A stretch of DNA of 64,000 nt, taken from positions 1-64,000 of IMG/VR virus record IMGVR_UViG_3300044843_000488. The stretch is one strand, 5' to 3'. The position numbers and the translations under genes are program-made. Below, piece by piece: positions 6,500-27,751 of the stretch. The notes beneath the pieces are model-generated. The model was not told the origin of the DNA and searched no databases. It saw nothing but the letters and a program-made list of their open reading frames with translations. The stretch's first letter is position 1; the number at the start of each line of letters is the position of its first letter. The DNA is from a virus.

Positions 6500-6868
6500 A
6501 TGCCAAACCCTTCTCTGAGAACTAGAATCATAGACGCAATGAGGACCGCTTCGGACACTTCTGCGGCGTCTGATTGGTGGGATGTGGCTGCCACCAATGT
6601 TATGCAAGAAGTGGCACAAGCTTTTCGAGATGACGACCTCCAACTTTCTGCTGACTGGGTCGATCAACAACGTCGAGCAGCACGACCCTTGTGGCTTGAC
6701 ATGGAAGAAGCTTTTGACAGCCAGATTGACGACTGCTTCTACGAGTTTCATCAAGCAGCCGCTGCCATGCTCAAGGTAGTTGCAACCCGGCTCGAAAATA
6801 ATGTCTTCTTGGAGGCGGCAAAATACTTGAGACAGCAGGCTGAAATTGCGGAATCCCTTAAGAAGTGA
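6500..6868 (+). CDS. Hypothetical protein with internal duplication
   Basis: Two similar helical units (AATNVMQEVA..SADWV / AAAAMLKVVA..AAKYL). Confidence 0.6.
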   Translation: MPNPSLRTRIIDAMRTASDTSAASDWWDVAATNVMQEVAQAFRDDDLQLSADWVDQQRRAARPLWLDMEEAFDSQIDDCFYEFHQAAAAMLKVVATRLENNVFLEAAKYLRQQAEIAESLKK

Positions 6869-7098
6869 TGTGGCGACTATGGGCTAAAGCTTTAGGGGAT
6901 AAAGCATCTTCCTGCAGTCGTGAGTCCGATATCGTTGCTTTGATTAGGAGCTTGATTCTTCTTGCCTATCTAGTGACGAATGGTTTCATCGTGGCTGGTG
7001 TCTTGAGGAATTGGAATGACAACTCCAAATTTGTTCCTAATTTGAACCAAATTAGGAGTTGCGGGCAGGCCACTCTTTGCTTATACGCAACTAGTTGA
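6865..7098 (+). CDS. Cyanophage-type small membrane protein
   Basis: MWRLWAKALGDKAS...NGFIVAGVLRNW resembles small ORFs I recall from cyanophages. Confidence 0.6.
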   Translation: MMWRLWAKALGDKASSCSRESDIVALIRSLILLAYLVTNGFIVAGVLRNWNDNSKFVPNLNQIRSCGQATLCLYATS

Positions 7099-7208
7099 AG
7101 GGGGGCGTATAGAATGGCAAAGTCTGATAGCGGACACCGGTTGGCAGACCGATGACCGGTGTAAGCGTGCTGTAAGTCCCGCCGCGTTTTCTGAGTAATA
7201 GGCTATAA

Positions 7209-7391
7209 ATGCAGCTAGAAGAAGCGTTTCAAATTCTCTACCGTGGCCAGAGCAACGTTGCCCATGTTGCGGCTGCTGTCGACTTGCCTCTGGGCAAAAT
7301 GAAATCCCTCTTCCGCGAATACGTCTCCCGTAATCCGCTTGATGAGCAGGCTTGGCTTAACGACATTGTTATGACGTGGCCTTATGCTTAG
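7209..7391 (+). CDS. Small putative HTH protein
   Basis: NVAHVAAAVDLPLGKMKSLF helix-turn-helix-like pattern; converges on the integrase. Confidence 0.55.
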   Translation: MQLEEAFQILYRGQSNVAHVAAAVDLPLGKMKSLFREYVSRNPLDEQAWLNDIVMTWPYA

Positions 7392-8479
7392 GTCAGCCTG
7401 TCCTGGATAGATCGTTTGAGGTCTTCTTTTTTGCACCATTTCAAATAGGTCTTTTTATGGACGTCAACGCCGTGGCCCATCAGTTGCGCGGCGTCCTCTG
7501 TTCTCACATGGCTGTATGCCTGGTGCGTGTGGAGCCTGGCGGCGTAGGCGTGGCGAAGGTCGTAGCTCGATGGGCTGCTCCATTCAGCTAGGTGCTTCCA
7601 CCGGGTGAAGAAGGTCGAGACTTTGCTGCCCAGTTCCCGGTGGGTTGATTCCGGCACGAACTCGGGTATGTCCCCGGACCGGAGGCTCCAGCGCTCGATC
7701 CACTCCGGATGGGCGGGCATCACCGGGCGGTATCCGGTCTTGGAGTTGGCGGCGATCTCGATCCAACCCTTGGCGTCGGGTCTGGATTCGAGGCGGAAGA
7801 CCTCGTGGTTACGGAGGCCGTAGGTGGCGATCAGGCCCATGGCGGTTTTCCAAGGCCCGTCATGGAGGTTGTCGACAAACCCGACAACTTGCTCGTCAGT
7901 CGGCAGATCCCTGGGATCGAGGATTTTGTCGCCGCTAAAGGTGCTCTCGGCCCTGGTGCGGTCAAGCCAGTCCCGGTCGATCCCCACACCGATCTCGAAC
8001 AGCCGCCGGGCTGTGGTGACGCGACGAAGTCGTTCGCGGCTGTCAAAGGGGGCGCGGAGCACCCACCGTTTGACCGCTTCTGCGCTGACCCCACCCCGAA
8101 ACGCCTGCAGCTCGCGGATGTGGCGCGCGTAGTCGGTGTGGATGCTGGTGCCCCGCCGGGTGAGGTGCTCCTTGAGGCGCAGGGTCAGGGCCGTCCAGCC
8201 AGTCAGCTCCTCGGCGCTCCCAATTTGGGAGGTCTTGCGCTCGATCAGGGAGGGGGTCTCCTCCAGCTCCAGGCAGAAGCGGAAGGCCCGGTTCAGGGCG
8301 TCAGACTCACGTGAATCTATACACGTGGATTTGATCTTCGTGCCATCCGGAAATGGTTGCGTAGCACGGATGTAGTAGATGGGCGATTGAGACGTCAGTC
8401 GCAGCCTAAAGCGGCAGCCCATCTCAGCGAGGACAGCGTTGCGCTCCTGCCAGGCGGCCAGGCGTTGTTGTCTACTCAT
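7388..8479 (-). CDS. int: Tyrosine recombinase / phage integrase (cyanobacterial type)
   Basis: Catalytic residues R (YGLRNHE), K (SKTG), YDLRHAYA, H (MGH) and Y (KTY). ATG at 8479; alternative TTG at 8494. Confidence 0.93.
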   Translation of the reverse strand: MSRQQRLAAWQERNAVLAEMGCRFRLRLTSQSPIYYIRATQPFPDGTKIKSTCIDSRESDALNRAFRFCLELEETPSLIERKTSQIGSAEELTGWTALTLRLKEHLTRRGTSIHTDYARHIRELQAFRGGVSAEAVKRWVLRAPFDSRERLRRVTTARRLFEIGVGIDRDWLDRTRAESTFSGDKILDPRDLPTDEQVVGFVDNLHDGPWKTAMGLIATYGLRNHEVFRLESRPDAKGWIEIAANSKTGYRPVMPAHPEWIERWSLRSGDIPEFVPESTHRELGSKVSTFFTRWKHLAEWSSPSSYDLRHAYAARLHTHQAYSHVRTEDAAQLMGHGVDVHKKTYLKWCKKEDLKRSIQDRLT

Positions 8480-8716
8480 TTCTTTACTCCGCAACGCCTG
8501 TCCAAAATAGGATGAGACTGCTCGCGGCGCAAGGGATCCCAGTCCAGGACTGCTGTCCTGTTTTGTATAGGTGTCTCAAGTCAGTGCCCAAGCGGCTTTT
8601 GCGCGGCTTAGAAGGCAGACTAAGACCCCTGTCAACGACTGGGTTTCTCAAGCCGTCTCTATTTGGGCTTTACTCAGCAACACAAAACTGGATTGGATGC
8701 TGAGGCGATGAAAAGA

Positions 8717-8790
8717 CGGGCCGTGCTGGACTCGAACCAGCGACCGAGTACTTAGAAGGTACTTGCTCTATCCAGCTGAGCTAACGGCCC
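8717..8790 (-). tRNA. tRNA-Arg, anticodon UCU (no encoded CCA)
   Basis: Reverse complement is GGGCCGTTAGCTCAGCTGGATAGAGCAAGTACCTTCTAAGTACTCGGTCGCTGGTTCGAGTCCAGCACGGCCCG, a full cloverleaf with AGTAC/GTACT anticodon stem and CTTCTAA loop. Confidence 0.96.
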
Positions 8791-8850
8791 AAATCCCTTG
8801 CCAGGACAAGGTTGTTGCCACTGTAACGCGGGACCCAAAAAGTTCAGTTG

Positions 8851-8864
8851 GTAACAATTGTTAC
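8851..8864. promoter_or_regulatory. NtcA binding site (GTA-N8-TAC)
   Basis: Perfect palindrome GTAACAATTGTTAC, 8 nt upstream of a TAAAAT -10 box (8873-8878). This is the repressing geometry for the + strand promoter. Confidence 0.8.
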
Positions 8865-8885
8865 AGTTTCCCTAAAATGGGGTCA

Positions 8886-8944
8886 CGTTGAGTGCAGGAG
8901 TGCCTGCACCGCAGTTTGAGCTTGACCAAGCAACGGGGGTCAGG
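8886..8944 (+). ncRNA. Glutamine-II riboswitch (Downstream-peptide RNA motif)
   Basis: P1 CGTTG(8886-90)/CAACG(8931-35); P2 GTGCAGG/CCTGCAC; pseudoknot CTTGACC(8921-27)/GGTCAGG(8938-44). Lies directly 5' of a DUF4278 ORF, the canonical context. Confidence 0.8.
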
Positions 8945-8962
8945 CCGCTGTTGGGTTGACCC

Positions 8963-9145
8963 ATGACCGTTCTCAATCACCTGTCCCTGATCAAGGACCA
9001 GATCACCCGTCACAGGGCTCTGAGCGACGCCCAGATGATCTCGCTGAAGGCTTACCGGGGTGTGCCGTACACCGTGGCACCTCATGAGGAGCACGTCTCC
9101 ACCGAGCTCATGTACAGGGGGCAGCGCTACCACCTCGACCGGTGA
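8963..9145 (+). CDS. DUF4278 protein (putative glutamine synthetase inactivating factor, IF17/GifB-like)
   Basis: Two YRG motifs (AYRGVPY, LMYRGQRY); 60 aa; downstream of the riboswitch. Confidence 0.82.
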   Translation: MTVLNHLSLIKDQITRHRALSDAQMISLKAYRGVPYTVAPHEEHVSTELMYRGQRYHLDR

Positions 9146-9207
9146 CGGTTGGCGGATCGTCCACTATTTGATTAGCGTGCTTTATAGCATTTATTAGAAT
9201 CCATAAT

Positions 9208-9242
9208 GCCCAGTCTGAGATTTCCTCGGGACTGGGCTTTTT
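9208..9242 (+). terminator. Rho-independent terminator closing the DUF4278 transcript
   Basis: GCCCAGTCTGAG-loop-CTCGGGACTGGGC followed by TTTTT. Confidence 0.8.
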
Positions 9243-9559
9243 GACTACTAGTGTTTTCCGCAGTTTTTTCTGTCTCAAGACTGCTGAAAACCGGCGTCAC
9301 GACTGGCTTGACAGATCCGTTTTAATTGTTTGCCGCATTTTTCCCCCCATTAGTCCCCAGCTGCTGTAGGGGTATAAGCAAGCCTTAACACTGTGCCTGG
9401 TGTGCCAAGCGCGTTTCAGACCCCACCAGACCCCATACATTGAATTAGTCCGCTAATTCGACCGATGCGTCGTACCGCTTTTGCCTTGTGCTGCTGGGTG
9501 TCTGAGCTTGCTCTGGCGTGGTCTGAAATGGCGGCGACAGTCAGCGACCGGTTCGCTCC

Positions 9560-9790
9560 TTATGACGCCGCGTCGAAGGACTGGAGGGTTAGTGCGTCAC
9601 GGAGCCGCTCGCTGTAAGGCAGCATCACGACTCCGTTGGGGGCGTCCGGGCTTTTGATTAAGACCTGCTCGTAGGTGAGGTCTGATTCAAGTATCTGAGC
9701 GATCAGCTCGCCTGCGCCCTTCTCGGTAGTACGAACGGTCAATTCCCACTCCATTGTTGGTACATTCGGCTGCATCAAATGTATCGGCAA
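9560..9790 (-). CDS. Hypothetical protein
   Basis: Open frame with protein-like composition; start uncertain. Confidence 0.5.
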   Translation of the reverse strand: MPIHLMQPNVPTMEWELTVRTTEKGAGELIAQILESDLTYEQVLIKSPDAPNGVVMLPYSERLRDALTLQSFDAAS

Positions 9791-10111
9791 ATGTTTGCCC
9801 CAGTGTTTGGATCATCTGGAGAGGATCATCTCAGCTTCAGTCTGCCCTCGACGGAGAATGATGCTGCCAATCCAACTCATTACAACAAAGGAGTGTCGCC
9901 CTACGACGTAGGCGAATCCATGTATGGCTTGGCAGGGTTGTTGACATATGTGCTGATCAATTCGATAAAGTATATTCAGCGCTATCCTCATAAGTATTTG
10001 GGGGTGCCAGAAAAGCAACTAGAGGATTTGATTAAGGCTCGCCAGAGTCTAGATACAGCTATCGAGTTGCACAAAAAATTGCATTGCAACGGCACCATCC
10101 GCCATGGGTGA
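9779..10111 (+). CDS. DUF3310 family protein (T7 gp1.7-like nucleotide kinase family)
   Basis: NPTHYNKG ... NSIKYIQRY ... EDLIKARQSL signature. Confidence 0.75.
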   Translation: MYRQMFAPVFGSSGEDHLSFSLPSTENDAANPTHYNKGVSPYDVGESMYGLAGLLTYVLINSIKYIQRYPHKYLGVPEKQLEDLIKARQSLDTAIELHKKLHCNGTIRHG

Positions 10112-13167: not shown

Positions 13168-14456
13168 TGGCTGTCACTCTTAAAATCAAACGCAGAGCTA
13201 GTGCAGGTGCCGCTGGTGCCCCTAATGCTCTGAAGGCCGGCGAACTCGCTTACAACGAGAACACGGGCGATCAATCTCTTTACTACGGCTACGGCGACGA
13301 TGGCAGTGGTAATGCCACTAGCGTCATCGCAATTGGCGGTTCTGGTGCTTACGCCACACTAAGCACCAACCAAACTATTTCCGGCAACAAGACCTTTACA
13401 GGTACCGTTGCGCTTGGTAGTGCGACTGTTACTGGTCTGGACACTACTGAAGTTTCCGAGGGGACTAATCTCTATTACACCGATGCCCGGGCACGGGGAG
13501 CAATCTCTGTAACGGATTCTGGTGGCGACGGATCTCTCTCCTATAACAGTTCGACTGGGGTTCTGACCTATACCGGCCCCTCTGCTGCCGAAGTCCGAGC
13601 TCACTTTAGTGCTACGTCGGCCTCCGGTGTTACTTACAACTCTTCAACTGGTGTCATTGCTCTGTCAGCTGTCCCGAACAGCTCCCTAGCAAACAGCAGT
13701 TTTTCCATTAATTCAAATTCGGTCAGCCTAGGTGGCAGTGTCACCTTGGATACCGACGACATCGGTGAAGGTAGTACCAATAGGTACTACACCGACGCTC
13801 GGGCCCGTGCTGCAATTTCGGCAGCCAGTCCGACGACGGGGGTTGCCTACAACAGCACCACTGGTGTTATTAGCCTTGCGTCCATTCCCAATAGTGCGCT
13901 GTCTAACAGCAGCATCACTATTAATGGTGTTGCTACGCCCTTGGGGGGATCGACCACCACCACTGCGGTCACCACTTCCCTCGGCGCCACGATCACGCTG
14001 CAGGGTACAGCGGGCGAAGTTGATGTTGCTACTAATGCCGGGACCGGGACCTTCACCATTGGTCTCCCGGATATTGTCAACATTACAGACGATCTGAATG
14101 TTGGCGGTGATCTTACTGTTACAGGCGATCTGACTGTAAACGGTGCCATCACCAGCCTGTCAACGACCGAAGTAAAGGTCGAAGATAAGAATATTGTTCT
14201 TGGTGACACTGCTTCACCTACTAACACCACGGCTGACGGTGGTGGTATTACCCTTAAAGGCGCTAGCGATTACACCATCACTTGGGTTAACGCTACAAGC
14301 TCCTGGAGCTTTAACCAGTCGGTTAACGTCACCTCAGGTGGGTACAAAGTTGCTGGAACTGAAGTTTTGAGCAGTTCCCGAGTAATGAGCAATGTCGCCA
14401 TTACTGGTAGTGGCAACACTATTGATAACGTGACCCTTGATGGGGGAACTTTCTGA
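13167..14456 (+). CDS. Tail fibre protein
   Basis: N-terminus LKIKR..GELAYN; repeats EGxxxYYTDARAR (x2) and YNSxTGV (x3); ends TLDGGTF. Confidence 0.8.
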   Translation: MAVTLKIKRRASAGAAGAPNALKAGELAYNENTGDQSLYYGYGDDGSGNATSVIAIGGSGAYATLSTNQTISGNKTFTGTVALGSATVTGLDTTEVSEGTNLYYTDARARGAISVTDSGGDGSLSYNSSTGVLTYTGPSAAEVRAHFSATSASGVTYNSSTGVIALSAVPNSSLANSSFSINSNSVSLGGSVTLDTDDIGEGSTNRYYTDARARAAISAASPTTGVAYNSTTGVISLASIPNSALSNSSITINGVATPLGGSTTTTAVTTSLGATITLQGTAGEVDVATNAGTGTFTIGLPDIVNITDDLNVGGDLTVTGDLTVNGAITSLSTTEVKVEDKNIVLGDTASPTNTTADGGGITLKGASDYTITWVNATSSWSFNQSVNVTSGGYKVAGTEVLSSSRVMSNVAITGSGNTIDNVTLDGGTF

Positions 14457-26135: not shown

Positions 26136-27751
26136 TAGCGCTGACCCCAGGTAATGCTGGCTTTACAGGAGTTAGACAGATTGTCGACGGATTTAGCAGC
26201 AATAATAAGTACATCCCCGGCTGTCCCGGATGCTGCGGTGGCTTCCCGAGTCAGATACTGACGGGCAAAGGCAAAAATTTCGGTGAGGTCGACCGTATCT
26301 GCTGACCCGTCGCCTGTAAAGAAACTAGCTAGTTGTTCGCCTCCCGTAAACGAAGTAATTGCGTTCGTAGCGCTTTCGGGGGAGTTGAACTCGATTGCTG
26401 AGAGGGTGCCAGTACTCGTAAACGCGGTTACCGGAGTCGAGGAGGCATCGCTCATCGTGGCCGGATTCTTAAACAGGGCAAACTGAGCTCTGGCTTCACT
26501 GCACATCGACAGCACCAGAGGGAACACCCTCATCAGGTTTCTTTTCGTCTGACCCTGATTATTGGTGATATTCTCTTTAATTCTCAGTGCGAGAAGTGGC
26601 TTGTACGAGGTCGTCCCGATGCTCGCCACTTTTGGACTATCCTTGCTGAAAATTGCAAGCTTGCTATAGTCGCCGCCATCAATGGAGATCTGGGCTCCGT
26701 ACTTGCGAATGTAGGAATTTGCCGACAGTGCACCAGTCTTCTCAATGCGGAACTGCATCGGAAGCGTTGGGTTCCCCAGCGACGGGTATGGGATTCTGTC
26801 TGAGCAGTTCAGATTGTGCGCAATGACCCAGCGGGAGGCTTTTACTGTTTCACCGCTAGGCAGGTTGGCATCGACAGGCACGTAAAACAACAGCCTTGAC
26901 CCGGTACCGCCATACCAGCCGTATTCAATACGGCACATCACCAGATTGGTCAGGCTGAGCTGGTGAGCCGATTTGGTATCAGCGGCACCCAGAATGGTCG
27001 TATTTGCACCGACCATCGTGTCGCCATTCCAAAAACGGCGCGGAACAATCTCTTCCATCACAGTGGGAGAGGTCGACACGAGTTGATAAACGGTGCCTCT
27101 ATCAGTACGGCTCGGTTGAGCGGTCATTACAGCCGCATCAACGGTAAAGGTGGTTGGGTCAGTACCTTGAGCCGTGTAGCCCTTCAGGTGGTCTTGTGGC
27201 CGCTCACCCGAGCTGGTCCGGCGCACGTAGTAGAGCTCGTCACCGACGATCCTCAGGAAATAGCCGTCCGTGCTGTCGAACATGCCAAACTCAATCTTGG
27301 CATTCGCGTCACGGCTCATGGCGACGCCAAAGGACGCCGAAGTAATGCGGCCGGTTTGGTACGGGAAGGCTTGCTTGGTGATCAAGCTAGCCAGCGCCCC
27401 ATTCGAAGCGGACGGGGTAACAAGCACTTCTGCTGCAGACTGCTGCAGAAGGTGATTGACCTGCGTTACCCGGCTTCCAGAGGCCGTTTGTTCATTCTTA
27501 GCCCAGATATTGGTGTCAATATCGAGCAGGTTAGTATCATCAAAAATTGCCAGGGGCGTTTGCACCCTTGGGATCCCCAGCAAGTCATCCCTGACTTGTG
27601 AAGGTGCAGACAAGTTGTCGAGGATTGGGATCGGACTCTGATCCGATGCCACCACCACAGGGAGGGAATTAGCCGAGGTCGCCTGACCAGCCGGAATAGG
27701 CGTTGTGCGACCTACTGTAATTACACTTACGCCTTCTTCAACGTCGGGCAT
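26135..27751 (-). CDS. Virion structural protein
   Basis: SLPVVVASDQ, DLLGIPR, YQTGRI and EYGWYG motifs. Confidence 0.7.
   Translation of the reverse strand: MPDVEEGVSVITVGRTTPIPAGQATSANSLPVVVASDQSPIPILDNLSAPSQVRDDLLGIPRVQTPLAIFDDTNLLDIDTNIWAKNEQTASGSRVTQVNHLLQQSAAEVLVTPSASNGALASLITKQAFPYQTGRITSASFGVAMSRDANAKIEFGMFDSTDGYFLRIVGDELYYVRRTSSGERPQDHLKGYTAQGTDPTTFTVDAAVMTAQPSRTDRGTVYQLVSTSPTVMEEIVPRRFWNGDTMVGANTTILGAADTKSAHQLSLTNLVMCRIEYGWYGGTGSRLLFYVPVDANLPSGETVKASRWVIAHNLNCSDRIPYPSLGNPTLPMQFRIEKTGALSANSYIRKYGAQISIDGGDYSKLAIFSKDSPKVASIGTTSYKPLLALRIKENITNNQGQTKRNLMRVFPLVLSMCSEARAQFALFKNPATMSDASSTPVTAFTSTGTLSAIEFNSPESATNAITSFTGGEQLASFFTGDGSADTVDLTEIFAFARQYLTREATAASGTAGDVLIIAAKSVDNLSNSCKASITWGQR

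Follow-up and report, generated by a model that had tools for sequence, protein, structure and literature searches.

The locus at positions 7388-9242 of the virus record IMGVR_UViG_3300044843_000488 is best explained as the integration module, with cargo next to the phage attachment site (attP), of a complete, terminally redundant temperate phage of lake picocyanobacteria with a genome of 74 kb. The window analysed here, 64,000 nucleotides (nt) in length, is the first 64 kb of this 74,307-bp record, which carries direct terminal repeats and is rated complete. Read along the minus strand, the locus shows in order an NtcA-type box, the promoter of a phage tRNA-Arg(UCU) gene, this tRNA, the P arm, the 13-bp crossover core and the P′ arm of attP, a promoter-like block and the integrase gene int. 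A nitrogen cassette, made up of a glutamine riboswitch and a small open reading frame (ORF), runs from the same box in the opposite direction, on the plus strand (Table 1). Taken as a whole, the explanation in which attP splits this layout, the phage tRNA replaces a host tRNA, NtcA represses the cassette and int is read from its own block is regarded as probable.

Integration splits the host tRNA-Arg(UCU) gene

The left and right prophage junctions (attL and attR) and the core were defined from five independent metagenome contigs in which phage sequence is joined to non-phage sequence. Along L033, one of these contigs, the elements succeed one another in the orientation of the tRNA as follows: the 5′ half of the host tRNA, CTGCCTTCTAAGC, the P′ arm, int, a stretch of 2.7 kb, the cassette, the NtcA box, the phage tRNA, the P arm, CTGCCTTCTAAGC again, the 3′ half of the host tRNA and a terminator. 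The identical left junction was found in L026, and the identical right junction in L028, L034 and L037. The core is common to attP, attL (L026 and L033), attR (L033, L028, L034 and L037) and the intact host-type tRNA of L028 (positions 1-58). When the host flanks of L026 and L033 were joined across the core, a canonical tRNA-Arg(TCT) was obtained with ARAGORN, and no tRNA was returned by this program for attL or attR alone. Integration splits the host tRNA-Arg(UCU), and neither junction rebuilds a tRNA. The attR end of the prophage carries the NtcA box, the phage tRNA and the cassette; int is about 74 kb away at the attL end, where it lies behind the host tRNA promoter and 5′ half.

The core occurs once in the 74-kb genome, 96 nt past the phage tRNA, with another 126 nt separating it from the start of int. 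The whole phage tRNA was also considered as attP and rejected, attL and attR both placing the core downstream of it. The P′ arm contains neither a T arm nor an acceptor strand. In the clade alignment it is invariant between variable flanks, and within it the hairpin stem is invariant and the loop variable. A direct repeat (GGTGTCTCAAG and GGTTTCTCAAG) has one copy on either side of the core, at a distance of 24-26 nt; the two copies are candidate arm-type Int sites, and the Int model shows an N-terminal three-stranded sheet resembling an arm-binding domain. The P′ hairpin with its T-run (8545-8568) has the form of a terminator on the plus strand only, antisense to int, and it may halt plus-strand antisense transcripts passing through int before they reach attP and the tRNA.

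The int product gave no match to Pfam (including PF00589) or PHROG and no sequence-profile match to PDB, and its identity as a tyrosine recombinase was resolved only by the predicted fold. The AlphaFold model (predicted local distance difference test score 82.7) matched exclusively tyrosine recombinases in Foldseek, namely Tn1549 Int, lambda Int, Xer and Cre, all with probability 1.0. Residues R228, R314, H341 and Y350 are invariant across 16 Int homologues, and the position of the first His of the HxxR motif is occupied by Tyr311. More distant cyanobacterial homologues carry PF00589, PF27132 and PF27551. The int product is 23% identical to the integrase of phage P-SS2.

Two of the junction contigs, L026 (1-4783) and L033 (1-4337), are chromosomal relics of about 4 kb bounded by attL and attR, with a C-terminal gyrA fragment inside. 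In both, int is truncated after about residue 243, and the phage tRNA, the NtcA box, the riboswitch and the 60-aa ORF of the cassette are intact. At its right junction L026 has undergone further erosion, the core being cut after CTGCCT. In L028 (1-4639; also L037 and L034) an intact host-type tRNA-Arg(UCU) precedes a stretch of about 4.3 kb, with a 722-aa ORF and an IS481-family transposase. Past this stretch follow a phage-type tRNA copy, the P arm, the core and another host 3′ half; the tRNA-Arg site resembles an island hot spot. The Logan contigs covering 6800-9800 bridged the locus exactly as in the window and contained no integration junction, their only loose ends lying within the tRNA and deriving from other tRNA genes. 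No match to an invariant 30-nt segment of the P′ arm was obtained in the genome-contig scan.

The phage tRNA agrees with the host tRNA-Arg(UCU) in its anticodon but differs from it in the acceptor, anticodon and T stems, and what it has in common with the core is limited to 9 nt (CTTAGAAGG). Nearly unchanged throughout the relatives, it is the most conserved element of the locus, and it persists together with the P arm in relics in which int is cut after residue 243 or the upstream DNA has been replaced (L028, L034 and L037). Most likely it is a stem-recoded replacement for the split host tRNA-Arg(UCU), which would therefore be needed whatever the nitrogen state.

It is unlikely that this tRNA is a codon-usage helper of the kind found in lytic cyanophages, brought near attP by accidental module shuffling. 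Such a role would suit its 88.6% identity to the tRNA-Arg of the T4-like phages S-RIM4, S-H35 and S-B64, the share of AGA among the arginine codons of the phage (15.7%, or 9.6 per 1000 codons) and the lack of any exact match to the 42-nt 3′ part of the tRNA in 185,579 species genomes. Against it stand the location of the tRNA only 96 nt from the core, and its anticodon, which is that of the very gene destroyed by integration, yet without the core in its sequence. Moreover, it has been retained beside the attR arm in five contigs, integrated or remnant, some of which have lost int function or the cassette, and relatives that restore their target have no whole tRNA at this place. A search of the literature for phages that carry a substitute for a disrupted tRNA gave no relevant result.

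Table 1. Features of the integration locus and of the divergent cassette, in window coordinates.
Feature	Position	Strand	Details and basis
int, 363-aa tyrosine recombinase	7388-8479	-	ATG at 8479; start given by the ORF caller is an upstream TTG at 8494
int-proximal block	8500-8539	-	TTGCGC 8532-8527, 17-nt spacer, TATTTT 8509-8504; GGAG before the ATG
P′ arm	8540-8605	-	nearly invariant; hairpin CAGGAC-N4-GTCCTG 8545-8560; repeat copy GGTGTCTCAAG 8570-8580
attP crossover core CTGCCTTCTAAGC	8606-8618	-	13 bp; identical to the anticodon stem-loop of host tRNA-Arg(UCU)
P arm	8619-8714	-	second repeat copy GGTTTCTCAAG 8642-8652
Phage tRNA-Arg(UCU)	8715-8791	-	ARAGORN tRNA-Arg(TCT); Rfam 66.1 bits
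tRNA 5′ leader hairpin	8811-8796	-	RNA fold
tRNA promoter -10 box TACAGT	8825-8820	-	25 nt from the NtcA box, 28 nt before the tRNA
NtcA-type palindrome GTAACAATTGTTAC	8851-8864	none	perfect, 14 nt, GTA-N8-TAC
Cassette promoter	8851-8878	+	-35 GTAACA (left half of the NtcA box), 16-nt spacer, -10 TAAAAT 8873-8878; sigma-70-like, promoter scan
Glutamine-II (type 2) riboswitch aptamer	8883-8945	+	Rfam RF01704, 46.9 bits against a 33-bit cut-off
DUF4278/IF17-like ORF, 60 aa, two YRG motifs	8963-9145	+	Pfam and phrog_545 matches
Cassette terminator	9208-9242	+	stem-loop spanning 30 nt, then TTTTT; RNA fold

The nitrogen cassette and the NtcA-type palindrome

The predicted start of the cassette transcript, near 8885, coincides with the first position of the riboswitch, 8883, and the centre of the NtcA site lies at about -27.5 from this start, the -10 box beginning 8 nt past TAC. 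In relatives the -10 box is kept as TAAAAT or TAAGAT, and the Glutamine-II riboswitch was also detected in L001-L003, L009 and L011-L014. The match of the 60-aa ORF to Pfam DUF4278 (E = 2e-4, 22.1 bits) is under the 25.3-bit cut-off, and the match to phrog_545 is 2.9e-15; the ORF is intact in all relatives, the remnants with truncated int included. The stem-loop closing the cassette had been overlooked by a simple terminator scan, the loop limit of which was too short.

In Synechocystis, NtcA sites are found around -30 in repressed genes and at -41 to -44 in induced genes (PMC5714215), and control of IF17-like genes by NtcA together with a type 2 glutamine riboswitch is a published picocyanobacterial model (PMC6212724). 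By analogy with these systems, NtcA most likely represses the cassette promoter, which its site overlaps, as the initial annotation had proposed for this side of the palindrome. NtcA bound there would mainly occlude the promoter when 2-oxoglutarate is high, and the riboswitch would permit translation of the cassette when glutamine is high. The cassette would then behave like a host gifB-type gene, sited at the prophage end like a lysogenic-conversion gene.

Among the 17 matches to GTA-N8-TAC in the window (7.1 expected; none of 100 shuffles reached 17), the one at 8851-8864 is intergenic and conserved. Other examples are those at 13774, 23279, 44836 and 63935. The possibility that the palindrome is no NtcA site and serves as an operator of a phage repressor or of Int/Xis, or is a -35 region palindromic by chance, is considered very unlikely. 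In its favour, the cassette parts are separable, phage S-RIM4 having a homologue of the peptide and no riboswitch at the gathering threshold. Against it, the conserved letters of the box are the GTA and TAC triplets, the inner N8 varying in relatives (AACAATTG, AACGGTTG and AGCGGTTG), and the palindrome accompanies a riboswitch and a type of gene that are NtcA-controlled in hosts (PMC6212724). In addition, the relatives L008-L010 have one or two extra GTA-N8-TAC or GTT-N8-TAC boxes at the same promoter.

Within the same clade, with integrases 77-88% identical, the whole arrangement is kept in three contigs from IMG/VR and ten from metagenomes. GTA-N8-TAC is retained in most of the clade, one subclade having GTA-N8-AAC. 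In a sister clade with integrases 34-49% identical (L008-L014) the cassette still divergently adjoins int, which bears out the conservation of this adjacency, asked for in the initial annotation, down to 34% integrase identity. The sister clade has no whole tRNA, and its attP is the 3′ part of a tRNA-Ala(GGC) from the anticodon stem onwards (e.g., L009 2150-2520); the displaced 3′ tRNA part is thus supplied by the element in this clade and not in the clade of the window. Adjacent boxes, GTA-N8-TAC followed by GTT-N8-TAC, were observed in L008-L010, and the second only in L011-L013.

The attP-proximal end of a prophage is the usual site for cargo expressed from the prophage. This position explains the adjacency of cassette and int equally well as, and more simply than, a regulatory link between them.

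Homologues of the 60-aa peptide were found in 71 cyanophage records, mostly of lytic T4-like phages. S-RIM4 (L040, MK493321.1 154748-161306), the one lytic T4-like cyanophage in which the riboswitch was sought, gave no support to the idea that such phages commonly have the full cassette. In S-RIM4 the tRNA-Arg is located 2.7 kb off the peptide homologue on the same strand, and an NtcA-type box, GTAACGAAAGTTAC, lies upstream of a small-ORF cluster.

Control of the phage tRNA and of int

The initial annotation had placed one palindromic NtcA box between the cassette and a tRNA-integrase unit, and had proposed that under nitrogen starvation NtcA represses the former and activates tRNA and int together, tying integration or excision to the host's C/N status. 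The palindrome between divergent units, the TACAGT box and the tRNA followed by int were all found where they had been described, and so was a spacing longer than canonical, 25 nt against the N21-N24 listed for predicted NtcA promoters of Synechococcus WH7803 (PMC9430850). Both the GTA-N8-TAC and the TAN3T features of a canonical NtcA-activated (class II) promoter are present on the tRNA side. The centre of the site lies at about -44.5 from the predicted tRNA start, and the value of about -41.5 expected with a spacing of about 22 nt was not found. On this geometry, NtcA activation of the tRNA promoter is rated as borderline.

In relatives the tRNA -10 box reads TAAAGT or TAGATT, and its TA...T letters are invariant in all ten aligned sequences, among them L028 and L034, where the NtcA box is absent; no -35 box is conserved. 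Each of the eight distinct phage-type sequences retains both TAN3T boxes and a spacing of 25 nt, in agreement with the conservation that the initial annotation had called for, the letters between the boxes being variable. The 120-nt region is nearly indel-free at the given divergence, however, and because of this the constant spacing is weak evidence by itself.

A single unit of tRNA and int is not supported, the attP core being located between them and int having a promoter-like block of its own. This block, 20-55 nt before the int start, is kept in ten sequences with integrases 34-88% identical. In the sister clade a strong hairpin with a T-run follows attP and precedes the same int-proximal block, and int is there insulated from upstream transcription by this predicted terminator. 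Because the attP core separates the NtcA box from int, which come to lie at opposite ends of the prophage, control of excision from the NtcA site is excluded by geometry. A tRNA-integrase unit and a lysogeny switch are unsupported also because the int block is conserved across all clades, because the terminator of the tRNA-Ala clade insulates int, because the tRNA -10 box is invariant even in contigs devoid of the NtcA box, and because the 25-nt spacing is outside N21-N24 (PMC9430850).

A narrower form of the proposal applies to the unintegrated, circularised genome. NtcA would activate the tRNA promoter, transcription would read through the tRNA and attP into int, and nitrogen-starved cells would be lysogenised more often with the cassette off. 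We give this account a small probability. It draws on a single palindrome between divergent -10 boxes, for which Anabaena provides a parallel in single NtcA sites serving two divergent starts (PMC3898017), on a spacing fixed in eight distinct sequences in spite of variable spacer letters and without a conserved -35 box, on the deeply conserved adjacency of cassette and int, and on the terminator scan, which detected no minus-strand terminator-like site between 8715 and 8494. These points are offset by the departure from N21-N24 (PMC9430850), the scarcity of indels in the region, the persistence of the tRNA -10 box where the NtcA box is missing, the conserved block of int and the terminator between attP and int in the tRNA-Ala clade. 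Furthermore, the link between NtcA and int is broken in the prophage, and a replacement tRNA should be independent of nitrogen starvation. An NtcA boost to integration on the unintegrated genome is, on the sequence evidence, unlikely. The corresponding two-way action of one NtcA dimer, in which the IF17-like gene is switched off, read-through of tRNA, attP and int is raised, nitrogen-starved picocyanobacteria are lysogenised and recombination then uncouples int from the sensor, is improbable to about the same degree; if it were true, control by the nitrogen sensor in the lysogen would be confined to the replacement tRNA and the cassette.

The explanation preferred here is that the phage tRNA would be driven by its own -10 box, that any effect of NtcA on the tRNA promoter would be a modest side effect, and that int would be expressed mainly from its own conserved promoter-like block. 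Several results weigh against it. The absence of a conserved -35 box, together with the invariant spacing, would suit an activator-dependent tRNA promoter, and the centre near -44.5 borders on the interval of induced genes, -41 to -44 (PMC5714215). The int block matches only 7 of 12 consensus positions, its function as a promoter being predicted, and, given the scan result between 8715 and 8494, read-through may occur on the unintegrated genome. L028 carries an intact host-type tRNA-Arg(UCU) in addition to the phage-type copy, so that replacement is something we infer. Finally, no RNA runs containing the phage were found in the run search. The spacer RNA between the tRNA and int is well structured (z = -3.6).

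Genome context and comparison with known systems

To the left of the locus the window contains genes for DNA polymerase A, dCTP deaminase and ribonucleotide reductase, and to the right genes for a DUF3310 protein, an endolysin and tail fibres. The phage sequence is present in about 20 lake-water metagenome runs, and no near relative at the DNA level was found among 50,697 deposited phage genomes. ARAGORN also reported a tRNA-Gln(TTG) at 26988-27066 on the minus strand, within a 538-aa ORF; it was not reported by the Rfam tRNA model at the gathering score and may be a false call.

Lysogeny in picocyanobacteria has so far been hard to demonstrate. The locus provides a complete temperate lake cyanophage for which attP, the host target and chromosomal relics are defined, which allows the direct design of primers for attL, attR and attB. 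More aptly than as a switch, the locus is regarded as an integration module to which a probable replacement tRNA and a nitrogen-sensing cargo gene belong. Its mode of tRNA-gene integration is unusual in that the target is destroyed and a recoded copy supplied, which would explain why the tRNA is kept after decay of the integrase. The presence of a host-style nitrogen/glutamine sensor beside attP throughout the range of integrases compared points to nitrogen-status-dependent expression of the cargo in lysogens.

In phage HP1 and many islands the crossover takes place in the anticodon loop of a tRNA gene (Williams 2002 classification). As in these elements, the crossover of the present phage falls in the anticodon stem-loop, the arms flank the core and int adjoins attP. 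The tRNA-Ala sister clade fits this type fully, whereas the clade of the window substitutes a whole second tRNA for the displaced 3′ part. The tox gene of corynephage beta is a lysogenic-conversion gene beside attP that is controlled by the host regulator DtxR. The cassette resembles it as a cargo at the prophage end that has its own promoter and would be read by a host nutrient-sensing regulator, and differs from it in that the regulator would be NtcA, acting together with a glutamine riboswitch, and in that the cargo is a putative metabolic regulator and no toxin.

Among cyanophages, P-SSP7, S-TIP37 (tRNA-Leu; PMC8776855) and P-SS2 (PMC2784084) likewise have a tyrosine integrase adjoining a short attP that matches a host tRNA, and, as here, integration was deduced from junctions or relics. 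The attP of P-SS2 and P-SSP7 comprises 36-42 bp of the tRNA gene, in contrast to the 13 bp found here, which are limited to the anticodon stem-loop. Unlike in these phages, the split target is left unrestored, and a complete recoded tRNA with the same anticodon is located 96 nt away. GTA-N8-TAC sites in lytic T4-like cyanophages have been taken as exploiting the nitrogen-stress regulon of the host (Sullivan et al. 2010, PMC3037559) and were read as activating, whereas in the present phage, which is temperate, the cassette-side geometry is that of repression.

The closest agreement of the cassette is with gifB of Synechocystis and the IF17-like DUF4278 genes of marine picocyanobacteria (Klaehn et al. 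2018, PMC6212724), which show the same overlap of NtcA site and promoter, a glutamine aptamer in the 5′ untranslated region and a short DUF4278-like ORF. The phage ORF is under the Pfam cut-off, and an action on glutamine synthetase is putative for the host versions too. In contrast to these host units, the cassette described here is phage-borne, located beside attP and conserved across a family of temperate phages.

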